From Gemmatimonas sp. (GTDB taxonomy: Bacteria; Gemmatimonadota; Gemmatimonadetes; Gemmatimonadales; Gemmatimonadaceae), in NCBI GenBank assembly GCA_031414535.1, contig JANNVQ010000029.1, positions 175,448 through 239,447 of the forward strand: DNA of 64,000 nucleotides. Reading direction: 5' to 3'. The position numbers are program-made. This document shows, in pieces, positions 48,001-54,000 of this stretch; positions within the stretch are counted from its first letter, which is position 1; the number at the start of each line of letters is the position of its first letter.

Positions 48001-51000
48001 CCGAGGCGAGGCGCGCAGAAGCTGCGGACTTGCTGCGAGATCAACTACTACTCGTGCGCGAGGACGCCGAGGGCCGCGTGCTCGATGCCACGGAAATTCA
48101 ACTCCCAGGCGCACTCGACGACCGCTTCGCCGCTGCGGTGAACGCGCCGGACCTCGGCCCCACATTCCGCGCCCAACAAGCAGCGGTCGCGCTCTGGGCC
48201 CCGACGGCGCGCAGCGTCTCACTCTGCGTCTACCCAAGCAGCGCTGCTCCCGCCGAGCGCGTCGTAGCAATGGAGCGCGAGAACGCAACCGGAATCTGGC
48301 GCGCCGCAGCATCGCGAGATCTTCGCGGGCGTGCGTATCTCTTCTTGGTCGAGGCATTCGTGCCCGGCGTTGGTGTGGTTCGCAACCGCGTGACCGACCC
48401 CTACGCCACCGCGCTCACGGCCGACTCCAAGCGTAGTGTGTTTCTCACTCTCGACGATCCGCGCACACTACCGCATGGATGGCGGCGCGCCGCGCGTCCG
48501 CGAGCGCTCACGGCTGTGACCGACCTCGCAGTGTATGAGCTGCACGTCCGCGACTTCTCGCTGCAAGACTCCACCGTACGCGCGGGATGGCGTGGGAAGT
48601 ATCTTGCTTTCGCTGAGCCGCGCAGTGCGGGGATGTCGCACCTGCGACTGCTCGCGCGCGCGGGGATGACGGATGTGCACCTGCTCCCCGTGTACGACCT
48701 CGCGTCAATTCCTGAAGTTGGCTGCGTGAATCCGCAGGTGCCCAACGCTGCGCCAGACGCCGAAGCCCAGCAAGCGGCCATCAGTCCGCTCGCCGAACGC
48801 GACTGCTTTAATTGGGGCTACGATCCCTTCCATTACAGCGTGCCTGAAGGGAGCTACGCGACCAACGCCGACGATGCCGCGACGCGCATCCGCGAGTTTC
48901 GCCAGATGGTGATGGCGCTGCATGCTGCCGGCCTGCGCGTGGGGCTCGACGTGGTCTACAACCACACGATGGCCTCGGGCCAGGATGCGCTCTCGGTGCT
49001 GGACCGCATCGTGCCAGGATACTATCAGCGGCTCAACGCGACTGGAGGCGTGGAGCGATCTACCTGCTGCTACAACACCGCGACCGAGCACGCGATGATG
49101 GCGAAGCTCATGATTGAGTCGGCGGTGCGCTGGGTGCGGGACTATGGCATTGACTCGTTCCGCTTCGATCTGATGGGACATCAGCCGCGCGCGGCGATGG
49201 AGCGGCTGCAGGTGGCGGTTGATTCCGCCGCTGGCCGACACATTCCGCTCGTGGGCGAGGGCTGGAACTTCGGCGAGATCGCCAATGGCGCGCGCTTCGT
49301 GCAGGCCTCCCAACTCTCGCTGCAGGGCTCTGGCATCGCCACGTTCAGTGATCGGGCGCGCGATGCCTTGCGTGGAGGCGGTTGCTGCGATGGCGGAGAA
49401 GGACTAGTCGCCAATCAGGGATTGCTCAACGGCCTGCACTATGCACCAAATGCCGTGAACGCCGGGCGCGATCGGCGCGCCGAGTTGCTGCGCGCCGCCG
49501 ACCTCGCGCGTGTTGGGCTTGCTGGAACCTTGCGCGACTATGAGATGCTTGGGGCCGACGGCGTACGTCGGCCACTCTCGGCATTCGACTACGGCGGTGG
49601 TCCCGCGGGCTTCGCGCTGGAACCGGGTGAGGTGGTGAACTACGTGGAGAACCACGACAACCTCACGCTCTTCGATCTCAACGCTCTGCGTTTGCCTCGC
49701 GACATCTCCCGTGAGGAGCGTACCCGCGCGCAGATGCTCGGCGTGGCCTTCACGGCCTTCAGTCAAGGCGTCGCGTACTTCCATGCCGGCGTGGAGGTGC
49801 TGCGCTCCAAGTCTCTCGACCGCAATTCCTTCAACTCCGGCGATTGGTTCAATCGGCTCGATTGGTCCTACCGCGACAACGGCTTCGGCAGCGGCGTGCC
49901 GCGCGCCGAGGACAATCGCGCGGAGTGGCCATTGATGAAGCCCGTGCTAGCCGATGCGCGCATTAAGCCTGCGCCGAGTGACATTCGTTGGATGCGCGAT
50001 GCCTCGCTCGACTTGTTGCGCATTCGTGCGAGTTCCACGCTGTTCCGCATGCGGAGCGCTGCCGATGTGCAGCGCCGGCTGCGTTTTGTGAATGTGGGAC
50101 CATCGCAGAATCCGGTGGTGCTTGCTGCCTTGCTCAACGGCGAGGGTTACGAGGGGGCAGGGTACCGAGAGCTGCTGTACCTGATCAACGTGTCCGGTGA
50201 GGAGCAAGAACTCGTGCTGCCCGAGGTAGCGGGGCGGCCGTGGATGTTGCACCCGTTGCAGCGTGCGGCGAGTGCCGCGGACGCGCGGCCTCGTCAGGCG
50301 AGGCTCGATGTTACTAGCGGAATGGTCAGCGTACCTGCGCGCACGGCAGTGGTGTTCGTGCGGGAGTGAGAGTCAGCGGGGCAGCGTTGCGGAACCTGTA
50401 TGAGCATGCGCCACTCCGAGCACTCGTCCCGCCGCTGCCATGCCGCTGAGCAGCGCTCCTTCCACGCGCGGTCCGCCGCACCAGTCGCCGGCCACGCCGA
50501 CACGCAAAGTCGCATCCCACAGCGAGTCGCTCTCAAGCACGGGATCTGGAATCGCATAGCGCCAACGATGCGCCTGCGCGTGCACGATACGCTTCGCCGC
50601 AGGGCCCAGCAGTTGCGCGAAGGCCTCGAGCATCGGCGCCATCGCCACATCCGGCTCGTCCTCGAGCGTGGCCAGGCTATGCGCGCGCGTCGCGTGCAGC
50701 ACCCAACATTCGTGCCCGCCATCGCGGCCCGGCTTGGCAGCATTGCGCGCCATCCACGCGAGGTGGGCGTTGTCGTTGACGAAGGCTGCGTCCCAATCAA
50801 GGCTTGCGGGACTTTCCAATACGCAGAGCACCGCGCGGCAGGGATGAAAAGCCACTCGCTCACAGGCCGCCGCGAGCTCCGGCGCGGAGGGCGTGAGGAG
50901 CGCGGCTGCCTGGGGTGCTGGCGCAGTCACAAGCAGTTGGTCGAATGTTCCGAGCGATGCGCCCAAGGCATCAGTTAAATGCCATCTGGCATCCGAGCGA

Positions 51001-54000
51001 CTGGCTGATGCCACAGTAGTGCCGACTCGAATCGTGAGGTCTCTCGATAAGTGGCGGGCAAGCGCCGACATGCCGGGCACGGCTACCCAGCGCGTGGGGC
51101 CGTCTGACGCATCGCGCCATTGGCCGCCTTCGCGCACCGCGATCTTCGCCTGCCACTGGGCCAACACGCCCGCATCCGCCCAACTCTTCACCCACGGTGC
51201 GAGGCGGGCATCGCGAAACGTGGCGTACTGCGCGCCGTGATTGAAGGCCCAGAGCCCTTCACGCCGCGTTGCGCTGCGTCCACCAACTCCGCGCGATTTC
51301 TCAAAGACCGTCACTGACACACCCGCATCAGTCAGCGTGCGCGCCGCGGCGAGCCCTGCGAGTCCAGCGCCAACAATGGCCACGCTGCCAACGTTCGGCT
51401 GCGATGGTCGCGCGATGTGCGCCGCGTAGCGCGCGAGGTCGAGCCGTGCTGCGTGCTCGCGCAAAGGACGCGGGCGCACGGTACCAAGCACGGGCTGCTC
51501 AGGTGCGAAGGGCCGATCGAATTGTCCCAAACACCAGAGCAGTCCGCCGTAGCTCGATGGGTCGCGCCCATCGAGCGCGTAGCGATTGTTGAGGTCAATG
51601 AGGCGAGCCAGCGCCTCGGCGGCGTCAGCGGACCATTCCAGCAACGCCTTGCCCCAAGTCATGCGGAGGTTGTTGTGCAGTTCGCCATGTCGTAGCAGGG
51701 ACTGTTGCGCGGCGTCCCACAGAGCATTGCCCGTCTCCGCCCGCGCGAGCGTTTCCCAAGGTAGGCGCTCGCGTGGGTCGGCGGCGTGTGCCTCAAGCGT
51801 CTCTACGGCCCAGCGCGGGACTGCTTGCAAGGACTCTACGTTTGGTGTGTGATGGCAGAAGGCATAGGCCAGCTCGCGCCAGATGAGGAGTTCGTCCAGC
51901 CACTTCTCCGGCCCCGTACCCGCGCGAGCGGCCGCTTCACGCGCGAGCGCGAAGGGCGAAACCATCCCGTAGTGTAGGTAGGGCGACATCCGGCTCACGC
52001 CATCGCCGCGCGCCGCATCGTTGCGGCGATCAGCGTAACGCGCCAGTGCACCATCGTCTACGAAGGCTCGCCAGCGCGCGAGGCCAGCCACACTGCCTCC
52101 GCGCGTGTCAGCGATTGGCCCAACCGTGTGATCGATGTGGCACTCCGCGACGAGGGCCGCGAAGTCGGCTGTACGCAGATCAATGGGAGTGAAGGGCAGT
52201 GGCACATCAGCGGGCGCCTGCTCCGGCATCACATCCACCCAAGGGCGAGTGAGTCGCTTCTGCCTGAGCTTTGCCGTCGCGTTCTTGTATGCAAAGGCCC
52301 GATCAAACGCACGCGGCACGAGCGGCATCGGCACCACGCAGGCCGTGTCCACCGCCCACACTGGTGTGGCAGTTCCACGCACGAGCGCGTCCGTCCACTG
52401 CGCCAGTGGTGGCACGGGCATGTGCTCGGTGACCACCAGCGCTGCGTCATCAGCCAACTGCCGGAGCCAAGGTCCGCGATGCCCTGGACGCTCCACGTGG
52501 CAGACGTAGGCGACTCCGCGGTCGGCGTAGGCCTGCGCGAGGTCGCGCATGGACTCGAGGATGAACCAGTGGTGGCGATCGCTGGAGTAGGGGTAGCGTT
52601 CGGACACCGCGTGATACACGAGGACGGGGAGTCCGAGCGCGTTGGCGATGGTGAGTGCGGTGTCGAGCGCCGGATTCTCCGTTGCACGGCTCGCGGTACG
52701 CGTCCAGTACAGGACGAAGCGAGCGCCGGAGCGTGCCTCCGCTCCCGATAGCGCGATGCAGCGCTCGGCGAGGTGGCGTGGCAGCGAGGGGAATCGCGTC
52801 ATGAGAGGAGAAACGCGCGTCGCGTATGCTTTGTGCCCCGCGCGAGACCACCTACCGGCCACCCCGCCGCCGCAGCCCGATGGCTCTGACAATACTTAGG
52901 TATTTACAAAAGTATTAGTTGGTGCTACCGTCCTCCTGTTAGCAACACCCTCAAGCCGGGAACGACGTTGCCAATGGCTCAATCCGCAGCCGCAGACAAA
53001 ATCTTTCACGCCCTCGCCAACCCCACGCGGCGCAGGGTCTTGGAGCGCCTCTCGGCCGGACCGGCCACGGTCAGTGAACTGGCCGCGCCCTTCCGCATGC
53101 AACTGCCGTCCTTCGTGCAGCACCTCTCGGTGCTGGAGCGAAGCCGCCTCGTGAAGTCCACCAAGCGGGGCCGCGTGCGCACGTATGAGATCGCGCCCGA
53201 GCGCCTCTCCGTCGTCGAAGACTGGCTCGGCGCGCGTCGCCAGTTGTGGGAAGCGCGACTTGAGCGCTTCGACCAATACCTCACGCAACTCAAGACCAGG
53301 GAAGCCGACGTATGAGCAAGCACTTTGCCTTCGATCCCAAGCTCGACTTTGCTATTGAACGCTTCGTGGACGCGCCCACGCGCCTCGTGTGGGAGGCGTT
53401 GACCAAGCCGGAGCATCTCAAGGAGTGGTACATGCCGAGGGCCTGGGGGCGCGTGGCGCGAGCCGAAATGGACCTGCGGCCGGGAGGCATGTTCAGCATC
53501 GACATCGCCGTGGGAGACGGTCCGGAGTTTCCCAATCTTGGCTGCTTCCTCGAGGTCGTGCCGTTGCAGCGCCTCGTGTGGACGTCGATGTTGTTCCCCG
53601 GCTTTCGCCCAGCGGTATTTGACGACATTCCAATTACGGCCATCGTGACGATGGAGAGTGTCGGGAAGGGCACGCGCTATGTGTTCACCGCGCTGCACCG
53701 GAACGAAGCGGATCTGGAGCAGAACATGTCATCGGGCTTCTATCAGGGCACCGAGATTGCGGTTGATCAGCTTGTGGCGCATGTGCTCGGGCTAAAATAG
53801 AGCGCCCGTGCGGGCGCCAACACGCCCTCGGCCTCTCCCATCACAATCAGGGTGCTCCCCGCCTCGACGCGGTGTGACTCCGGCGGGTTGTAGACGACCT
53901 CGCCAGTCACCGAATGCACGGCAAGTAGCAGCAGGTTGGCGTACTGCGAAGGCGCAAGCTCCTTAAGGGTCTGGCCGACGAACGAAGACCCCTGCCCAAC

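Follow-up and report, generated by a model that had tools for sequence, protein, structure and literature searches.

A single-frame fusion of a class II photolyase with a renalase-like FAD domain in Gemmatimonas sp.: predicted docking and candidate roles

What does a renalase-like flavin domain do on a DNA photolyase? The question is raised by one gene (P0001) in the window, the 64,000 nt stretch of a Gemmatimonas sp. contig that we analysed. What bacterial renalase does in nature and where its substrates come from are poorly defined, as is the in-vivo reductant for photolyase activation.

Gene structure and the photolyase half

The P0001 frame runs from an ATG at 52802 to a TGA at 50373 (2430 nt) with zero internal stops (Table 1). 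A TTG further upstream would give an 839 aa product, but relatives begin at about residue 6 and the ATG was therefore taken as the right start. No match to a sigma-70-like promoter was found at the locus. Using phmmer, residues 23-449 were aligned with the Methanosarcina mazei class II photolyase (MmCPDII; E 2e-50 to 4e-50) and residues 474-796 with Pseudomonas renalase 4ZCC (E 3e-65), while the match of the photolyase half to the Thermus class I enzyme was weaker (E 2e-14 versus 2e-50 for class II). TIGR00591 was the best model for this half (295 bits, below its 550 cut-off). Foldseek gave 41% identity, a target TM of 0.95 and an rmsd of 1.4 A against renalase, and 27% identity with a target TM of 0.88 against MmCPDII. 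By fold and sequence affinity the N-terminal half is a class II CPD photolyase, and motifs alone suggest that both domains bind FAD.

Table 1. Positions in the window of the fused gene, its parts and the predicted interface elements
Feature	Position	Strand	Residues	Remarks
Fused gene P0001	50373..52802	-	809 aa	Class II CPD photolyase + renalase-like FAD domain
Class II photolyase half	51411..52784	-	about 7-464	Alignment to 2XRY, conservation, TIGR00591
Short linker	51387..51410	-	465-472
Renalase-like FAD domain	50415..51386	-	473-796
C-terminal tail	50373..50414	-	797-809 + stop	Without clamp-binding-like motif
Predicted interface patch, photolyase (C-x-I-D-H motif)	52110..52163	-	214-231	Packs on renalase C-terminal helix
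Predicted interface patch, photolyase (W349, E350, R354)	51741..51761	-	348-354	Directly after 347 (Mm Y345)
Predicted interface, renalase helix 1 end	51321..51338	-	489-494	D492 pairs with R354
Predicted interface, renalase W541 helix	51171..51206	-	533-544
Predicted interface, renalase C-terminal helix	50403..50441	-	788-800	Includes G792

These searches and the uninterrupted frame bear out the first-pass annotation, which had described one open frame joining the two enzymes; its Pfam assignments (DNA_photolyase 30-162, NAD_binding_8/Amino_oxidase 476-795) were reproduced, and Foldseek likewise gave 41% identity to Pseudomonas renalase. Its view that the fusion is no gene-calling accident also holds: a gene-calling or assembly artefact is excluded by a single frame across both halves in 78 of 80 loci (10 of these run off the contig end), the other 2 being frameshifted.

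P0001 shares with MmCPDII (PDB 2XRY, 2XRZ, 4CDN) the fold, the tryptophan triad W381/W360/W388, whose roles are described in excerpts of PMC5885780, the residue N403 and the lesion pocket E301/W305/M379/W421. In the alignment to 2XRY the corresponding lesion-pocket residues are E304, W308, M381 and W423 and the triad is W383-W362-W390, with N405 and the R380-D411 pair also retained. Photolyase core positions were retained in 108-119 of 119 diverse fused representatives, including W383 (119/119), W362 (113/119) and W390 (116/119), with N405, E304, W308, M381 and W423 equivalents each found in 114-118. Given this invariant catalytic core, the N-terminal half would bind FAD and split cyclobutane pyrimidine dimers with light. 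The fusions differ from MmCPDII in the change of D404 to His or Asn and of W431 to Phe, in the extra 330-aa docked domain, in a clamp-like tail in some relatives, and in the loss of the auxiliary tyrosines Y345 and Y380, conserved though dispensable residues of class II enzymes, which are L347 and T382 in P0001. Tyr occupies the Y345 position in 24/24 stand-alone photolyases versus 27/119 fused proteins, and Thr the Tyr380 position in 189/193 fused rows.

PhrSph98-like class II photolyases are reported to be CPD/(6-4) bifunctional in the excerpted text of a preprint (bioRxiv 10.1101/2022.06.29.498140). From the same excerpts, PhrSph98 residues E310, W314, N384, M388, W369, W390 and N412 correspond to P0001 E304, W308, N377, M381, W362, W383 and N405, whereas the proposed electron-path residue Y389 is T382 (Thr likewise in tree nodes 13-14, which the authors left out of the true PhrSph98 homologues) and A430 is Trp. 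A figure legend names COG3380 among the domains on the photolyase tree, and the excerpted text is silent on an added domain. The fusion had been called undescribed, and a repeat of the 'photolyase' plus 'renalase' literature query again returned nothing on a fusion; our literature search, which lay outside most subscription journals, found no published study of one. With the legend's mention of COG3380 on related photolyases, 'undescribed' is a little too strong.

Distribution and genomic context

The earlier homologue counts were reproduced (2603 proteins at E<=1e-60 of 8000 scored, 120 listed), but the statement that the relatives are mostly Gemmatimonadota reflects nearest-hit bias: only 5 of 80 named GTDB loci, assigned by their record titles, belong to that phylum versus 37 from Planctomycetota, the remainder comprising 15 Desulfobacterales or 'delta', 8 gamma/beta/unplaced Pseudomonadota, 6 Myxococcota, 6 Alphaproteobacteria and 3 others. 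Within its own phylum the fusion was found in only 9 of 301 genomes, 2 of these copies being broken, and Thermoplasmatota are also among the carriers (ESM Atlas clusters). The photolyase halves of the fusions form one clade (236 tips versus 25 stand-alone, SH-like support 1.0), and the best 150 matches to the photolyase half alone included 121 full fusions and 11 more with part of the domain. The best explanation is a clade of single origin with a structurally integrated renalase-like domain.

A conserved operon is excluded, no neighbour family occurring in more than 10 of the 80 fused loci. A light-stress or glycosylase gene was present in 11 of 39 fused loci of at least 12 kb, and none lies beside P0001. 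Replacement of a housekeeping photolyase is likewise excluded, as the genome carries three other family members; among the matches listed, a second class II gene was found in 9/9 own-phylum and 8/10 Pirellulales carriers, kin that are not independent.

Stand-alone renalase-like genes have a separate connection with photolyases. In light-stress clusters of Burkholderia, Novosphingobium and Asticcacaulis, a renalase-like gene lies beside CryB-type, class I or short FAD_binding_7 photolyase genes together with folE, DUF2256 and a MerR regulator; in contrast to P0001, these are separate genes and other photolyase classes, and the window is without such a cluster. A photolyase-family gene was present in the examined flank of 5 of 10 stand-alone renalases on plasmid records, and folE homologues in 6 of these 10 loci (4 bp upstream in Sphingobium). 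Around Planctomycete and Gemmatimonadota stand-alone renalases no photolyase was found (0/10 loci), and folE had no match in the 80 fused loci. We infer that the C-terminal half would derive from renalase-like genes of light-stress clusters. A fusion predicted to be rigid and a separate adjacency to other photolyase classes tie bacterial renalase to light damage, and the fusion allows that tie to be probed in a single soluble protein.

Predicted docking of the two halves

The AF2 model of full-length P0001 had a pTM of 0.95 and a pLDDT of 96.8. Split-chain prediction of the photolyase against the renalase half scored 0.90 (best of three controls, 0.00), a mark reached by 116 of 157 solved pairs and 2 of 215 mismatched pairs, with at least 92% contact agreement among runs and a partner pLDDT of at least 93; because both docking predictions started from our own alignment of the fusions, they do not count as evidence separate from the R354-D492 covariation described below. 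The halves of P0001 are predicted to dock rigidly, which makes the case for a conserved two-domain fusion stronger than the first-pass annotation had claimed.

The linker has a median pairwise identity of 23%, yet R453 and G478 are 25 aa apart in all but 9 of the 193 rows (184/193). Among 309 relatives R354 and D492 covary (both in 277, neither in 18, discordant in 14, with one charge swap). D492 and G792, the sole two fused-specific renalase residues, were identified before the model was made and both fall inside the predicted interface. In the model W349 contacts residue 540 and E350 contacts W541, and the predicted contact takes in the patch beside the photoreduction exit (MmCPDII Y345/W388). 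Three helices would hold the FAD-binding Rossmann half against the photolyase, as the model predicts and covariation supports, and the docked domain would cap the surface next to where the tryptophan chain ends. A flavoprotein predicted at this site bears on the question of the in-vivo reductant.

Pocket conservation and the role of the second domain

All ten positions that we take to be renalase pocket markers are present in P0001 (10/10), as are the GxGxxG, GGR, HGAQY, HRW and GDW motifs. P0001 shares with Pseudomonas renalase (PDB 4ZCC, 4ZCD, 5KRQ, 3KKJ) the FAD motifs and the equivalents of Y57, F204, H232 and R308 (Y526, F674, H703 and R779), and differs from it in being fused and, by prediction, docked and, in the putative nicotinamide pocket, in the replacement of R280 by I751 and of T185 by Cys. 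The R280 equivalent is missing from 109 of 112 stand-alone renalases as well and the H703 equivalent is retained in just 2 of 5 named ones, so neither an 'intact' nor an 'eroded' pocket proves activity. Excerpts of PMC7660482 give renalase activity as the oxidation of 2- and 6-dihydro-NAD(P), and by homology the domain in this genome would most likely still be a flavin oxidase clearing these isomers.

Across the fused family the pocket has been eroded repeatedly, or deleted, in many relatives. It is eroded in 43 of 119 representatives, and in fused domains below 40% identity Q525, Y526 and W683 were each found in 29-31 of 80 versus 17-18 of 19 divergence-matched stand-alone controls (16 of which belong to one clade), while FAD motifs persist in 77-80 of the 80. 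Eroded domains are under purifying selection (dN/dS 0.12-0.40, 6 pairs), suggesting that another function may exist. Shortened forms, which recur in their clusters at constant length, have lost the substrate domain and retain helix 1, the W541 helix and the C-terminal helix; one of them (P0300) is still modelled as one body (pTM 0.94), and several remnants are without the GxGxxG motif. This natural series of intact, eroded, mini-domain and lost forms provides ready controls and illustrates an enzyme becoming a scaffold. Cofactor repair beside DNA repair, as first proposed, fits P0001 with its complete marker set and the cluster link of stand-alone renalases; it cannot be the family-wide reason for the fusion, given the eroded and deleted pockets.

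The reading that we favour, although we would put it a little short of an even chance, is an enzyme that repairs light damage, with a second domain that serves as an obligatory structural cap and, optionally, as an oxidase of NAD(P)H isomers. The docked cap is what selection would retain most widely, oxidase activity would be optional across the clade, and electrons would not have to pass between the two flavins. About 6 of 150 clade members stop immediately behind the photolyase half, so a strict requirement for the cap does not hold. A C-terminal Q-x(2,3)-L-F motif, which we take to be a clamp-binding consensus, was found in 46 of 309 fused relatives (shuffled maximum 3 per set), in 1/112 stand-alone renalases and 0/24 stand-alone photolyases, and is absent at the P0001 C terminus. 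Judged by its sequence, the tail of some members would recruit the enzyme to the replisome; our literature search found no published report of a clamp-tethered photolyase.

The main rival, which we consider unlikely, is a built-in electron donor. NAD(P)H isomers or some other reductant would reduce the renalase flavin, which would in turn re-reduce the terminal Trp radical and complete photoactivation, replacing Tyr345 and outside reductants. It agrees with the 'dedicated redox partner' of the first-pass annotation in that the predicted 348-354 patch adjoins position 347 and the Y345/W388 exit, with the modelled W349 and E350 contacts close by; the auxiliary tyrosines are largely lost, FAD motifs outlast the renalase pocket, and in excerpts of PMC5885780 the distance between Tyr345 and Trp388 of MmCPDII is 3.8 A and radicals depend on extrinsic reductants. 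Against it, the candidate relay W349 occurs in only 53/119 representatives and does not track pocket integrity (20/46 intact versus 19/43 eroded), Trp or Tyr at 347/349 is found in about half of both sets, and GxGxxG is gone from several remnants. Human renalase, according to excerpts of PMC7660482, is inactive on 1,4-NAD(P)H, which would make for a poor electron supply.

A self-activating, often clamp-tethered two-flavin photolyase, passing electrons of toxic NAD(P)H isomers through the docked renalase flavin to the terminal Trp radical, is in our judgement likewise unlikely. If true, cofactor clean-up would fuel the activation of DNA repair; the photolyase would carry a reductase domain of its own, and the electrons taken up by renalase would serve a physiological purpose.

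That the domain acts instead on another light-related substrate (an antenna precursor of the pterin, folate or flavin type, or a cofactor damaged by light) is improbable. The folE homologues in plasmid renalase loci, the missing R280 and the persisting purifying selection on eroded domains would suit such a substrate, whereas the 41% identity and TM of 0.95 to a characterised renalase, the absence of folE matches in the fused loci, and eroded pocket positions that differ within one group with no convergence on a new residue set argue against it.

Still less probable is that the fusion merely co-expresses two independent light-stress enzymes and that docking is a modelling by-product. Fused and stand-alone renalases do interleave on a tree of weak backbone (23 label changes over 358 tips, shuffled minimum 99), one genome (L149) retains an eroded renalase without the photolyase half, and short renalase-only proteins of 73-78% identity exist. 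These short proteins may be products of fission; two of them, P0122 and P0123, bear linker remnants, and a metagenome scan gave one locus, at 50%. The fixed linker length, the R354-D492 covariation and the retention of exactly the interface helices in remnants count against independence.

Very improbable, finally, is an antenna role, with the second FAD passing light energy on to the catalytic one: oxidised-flavin emission overlaps FADH- absorption poorly, the second FAD of the known case occupies the N-terminal antenna pocket rather than an added domain, and some remnants lack the FAD motif, although positions that are presumably antenna-related are altered (R413 in 75/119; F278 to Tyr or His). 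A two-FAD photolyase has a precedent in the title of PDB 2E0I.

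Gene setting and distribution of the fusion

The first-pass annotation had proposed a single 809-aa frame joining a photolyase to a renalase-like protein, and this was borne out by an uninterrupted run of 809 codons, sequence matches and a fold search. Residues 23-449 resembled class II CPD photolyases and residues 474-796 a Pseudomonas renalase, and the fold search returned the same two identities. Only 3 bp separate the fused gene's stop from the end of a convergent pullulanase-type gene, and a divergent ArsR/AHSA1 pair lies 165 bp from its start; neither is among the recurring neighbour families of fused-gene relatives. 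Judged by what its nearest relatives are called, the host probably belongs to the Gemmatimonadaceae. In the AT-rich gap upstream of the ArsR/AHSA1 pair, an inverted repeat with two perfectly matching 7-bp arms, 12 bp apart, is probably the ArsR operator. In the potassium-channel-like gene, the Ion_trans_2 piece closes with TAG and the TrkA_N/TrkA_C piece begins 9 bp on, reflecting either a split gene or a stop within a formerly single gene.

Features of the window and predicted interface residues of the fused protein
Feature	Location	Strand	Remarks
Pullulanase-type gene	47580-50369	+	
Fused gene	50373-52802	-	
Inverted repeat	52891-52916		probable ArsR operator
ArsR gene	52968		
AHSA1 gene	53312		
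Potassium-channel-like gene	53767-54819	-	two in-frame pieces: Ion_trans_2, TrkA_N/TrkA_C
Type III polyketide synthase, methyltransferase, FAD-dependent oxidoreductase	56333-59258	-	three overlapping genes, one cluster
Predicted interface, photolyase side	residues 75, 79, 214-231, 348-354, 370-371, 403		split-chain model
Predicted interface, renalase side	residues 489-494, 533-544, 758-764, 788-800		split-chain model

A GTDB scan yielded 383 relatives, and among the best 80, kept by a score ranking that favours fusions, both halves were present in all 80 and in a single frame in 78. Going by record titles, 37 of the 80 belong to Planctomycetota, 15 to Desulfobacterales or delta, 8 to other Pseudomonadota, 6 each to Myxococcota and Alphaproteobacteria, 5 to Gemmatimonadota and 3 to other groups; Thermoplasmatota are represented in Atlas clusters. 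Distribution was patchy, with the gene in 9/301 genomes of its own phylum (7 of the 9 intact) and 10/201 genomes of the order of a Pirellulaceae member. A stand-alone class II gene was also found in 9/9 and 8/10 of these carriers, respectively, and the present genome encodes class I-type, class II and CryB-type photolyases elsewhere; the fused protein is usually an additional photolyase. The stand-alone class II photolyase of this genome (G000, contig C5, L081:7782-9194) is 38% identical to the fused half, and its canonical motif is replaced by Thr-Arg-Met-Leu-Trp. At several loci (L069, L071, L072, L078, L080 and others) the fused gene is clustered with genes for an Fpg-type glycosylase (9/80), a CryB-type photolyase (7/80), an SDR (9/80) and an unnamed small membrane protein that has no Pfam match (10/80).

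A photolyase clade with a predicted docked partner

As a fairer test, the photolyase half alone was searched against 50%-identity representatives. The best 150 matches contained 121 full fusions, 11 proteins with a partial renalase domain and 18 without a renalase match (7 broken frames, 3 with remnant domains, 6 ending soon after the photolyase, one sister-type stand-alone and one unrelated giant). A 261-tip photolyase tree, from which a duplicate stand-alone and eight rows that were broken or unrelated had been removed, and which samples 20 of the near matches and includes six loci twice, separated 236 clade members from 25 stand-alones with SH-like support of 1.0. The renalase halves were not monophyletic, fused and stand-alone forms being interleaved. 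At locus L149 (genome G103) an eroded renalase domain stands alone downstream of an amidohydrolase-like gene of the type that precedes fused copies in its kin; the photolyase half looks to have been deleted.

By alignment to Methanosarcina mazei numbering, the triad, N403 and lesion pocket, whose roles are described in PMC5885780 and bioRxiv 10.1101/2022.06.29.498140, are kept in the fused protein and in 113-119 of 119 representatives. The Tyr345 equivalent persists in 27/119 fused representatives versus 24/24 stand-alones; the fused clade, unlike the stand-alones, also lacks Tyr380, and it has gained near-invariant residues of its own (e.g. R168, W244 and R445). Equivalents of R256/N257, R378-D409 and D428/R429/R441, positions that we take to have known roles in the M. 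mazei enzyme, are kept in 108-119/119. Judged from its sequence, the fused protein would repair CPDs.

The two halves are predicted to dock as one structure. AlphaFold2 gave the whole chain a pTM of 0.95, and a split-chain prediction (two chains, no linker, two FAD) scored 0.90 versus 0.00 for the best control, with at least 92% of contacts shared between runs and partner pLDDT of at least 93; this level was reached by 116/157 solved versus 2/215 mismatched pairs, counts that are only roughly valid here. Neither sequence nor fold searches found a PDB match spanning both halves. The R453-G478 spacing is 25 residues in 184/193 rows despite a variable linker sequence, and several loops within the renalase domain vary far more. 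Across 324 rows (15 of them duplicates), the only fused-specific renalase residues were D492 (93% versus 41% in stand-alones) and G792 (92% versus 18%), both identified before the split-chain result. R354 and D492 covary across 309 de-duplicated rows, among which kin are not independent; these lines of evidence for docking share one alignment and so are not fully independent.

Erosion of the renalase-like domain and its possible role

The present copy has all FAD motifs and 10/10 pocket markers, which we selected by alignment to 4ZCC and by their conservation across the family and presume to be functional; its R280 equivalent is Ile. Residue 521 is Asn where 192/193 aligned rows have Asp (F-D-H-G motif). 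Among the 119 representatives, at least 8 markers are kept in 46 and at most 4 in 43, and pocket state switches 25 times on the tree against a shuffled minimum of 37. Divergence-matched comparison found greater pocket loss in fused than in stand-alone domains, 16 of the 19 controls coming from one clade; five named stand-alone renalases also vary at H703 and F674. Eroded domains still gave dN/dS of 0.12-0.40 in six pairs, and the pocket domain evolved at 2.45 times the photolyase rate in these pairs versus 1.57 times in 15 intact pairs. In approximately eight representatives, a large part or the whole of the substrate domain has been lost through in-frame deletions, which in some cases also took GxGxxG, yet helix 1 and the W541 helix were retained and, in most, the final helix; these are the interface helices. 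For one shortened relative (P0300), the model reached a pTM of 0.94, and pLDDT exceeded 90 on these helices. Shortened forms are unlikely to be artefacts, since length is constant within each cluster (2, 6, 2 and 15 listed members).

We tentatively favour, at somewhat short of even odds, a renalase-like domain that serves as a cap with an optional oxidase activity: the cap would have a structural role, and the renalase half of this copy may in addition oxidise NAD(P)H isomers. Electron donation to the photolyase is attractive because the predicted docking places the cap beside position 347, the Tyr345 equivalent whose tyrosine is lost. However, the candidate relay W349 occurs in fewer than half of the representatives and does not track pocket integrity, and some remnants are probably unable to bind FAD, and we consider this role unlikely. 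Action on another substrate appears improbable, two independent domains slightly more so, and an antenna function is the most doubtful of all.

Clamp-like tails, stand-alone renalases and earlier literature

The motif Q-x(2,3)-L-[FW], which we take to be the clamp-binding consensus, lies within the final 14 residues of 46/309 fused proteins, compared with shuffled means below 1 per set, 1/112 stand-alone renalases and 0/24 stand-alone photolyases. Tail-bearing relatives may be tethered to the clamp; the C-terminal tail of the present protein lacks the motif.

Photolyase and renalase are each of known kinds, and what is new is the eroding, sometimes clamp-tailed unit with its predicted docking. 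Literature searches, covering sources other than subscription journals, returned no relevant paper on a photolyase-renalase fusion or on a photolyase with a clamp motif, nor, among the matches listed, on a class II photolyase fused to an oxidoreductase or in Planctomycetes. We take COG3380 to be the renalase family. The Figure 1 legend of the preprint bioRxiv 10.1101/2022.06.29.498140 includes COG3380 among the domains on its tree of class II relatives, and no study of the fusion was found; within the literature searched, the architecture has thus probably been depicted incidentally without being studied. The available parts of PMC7560933 and PMC7736829 mention no such fusion.

Stand-alone renalases from 10 of the 13 plasmid renalase matches were examined: a photolyase-family gene lay near 5/10 (two pairs being near-duplicates) and some light-cluster gene near 8/10, and in Asticcacaulis the renalase gene shares 11 bp with a FAD_binding_7 gene. 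A nearby photolyase was seen at 0/10 Planctomycete/Gemmatimonadota stand-alone loci. Light-induced phrB/LitR clusters are described in PMC9758184 and PMC11417400, the available parts of which do not name renalase. At four loci (L158, L161, L163 and L164, from Rhizobium, Novosphingobium and Sphingobium), folE directly adjoins a stand-alone renalase-like gene.
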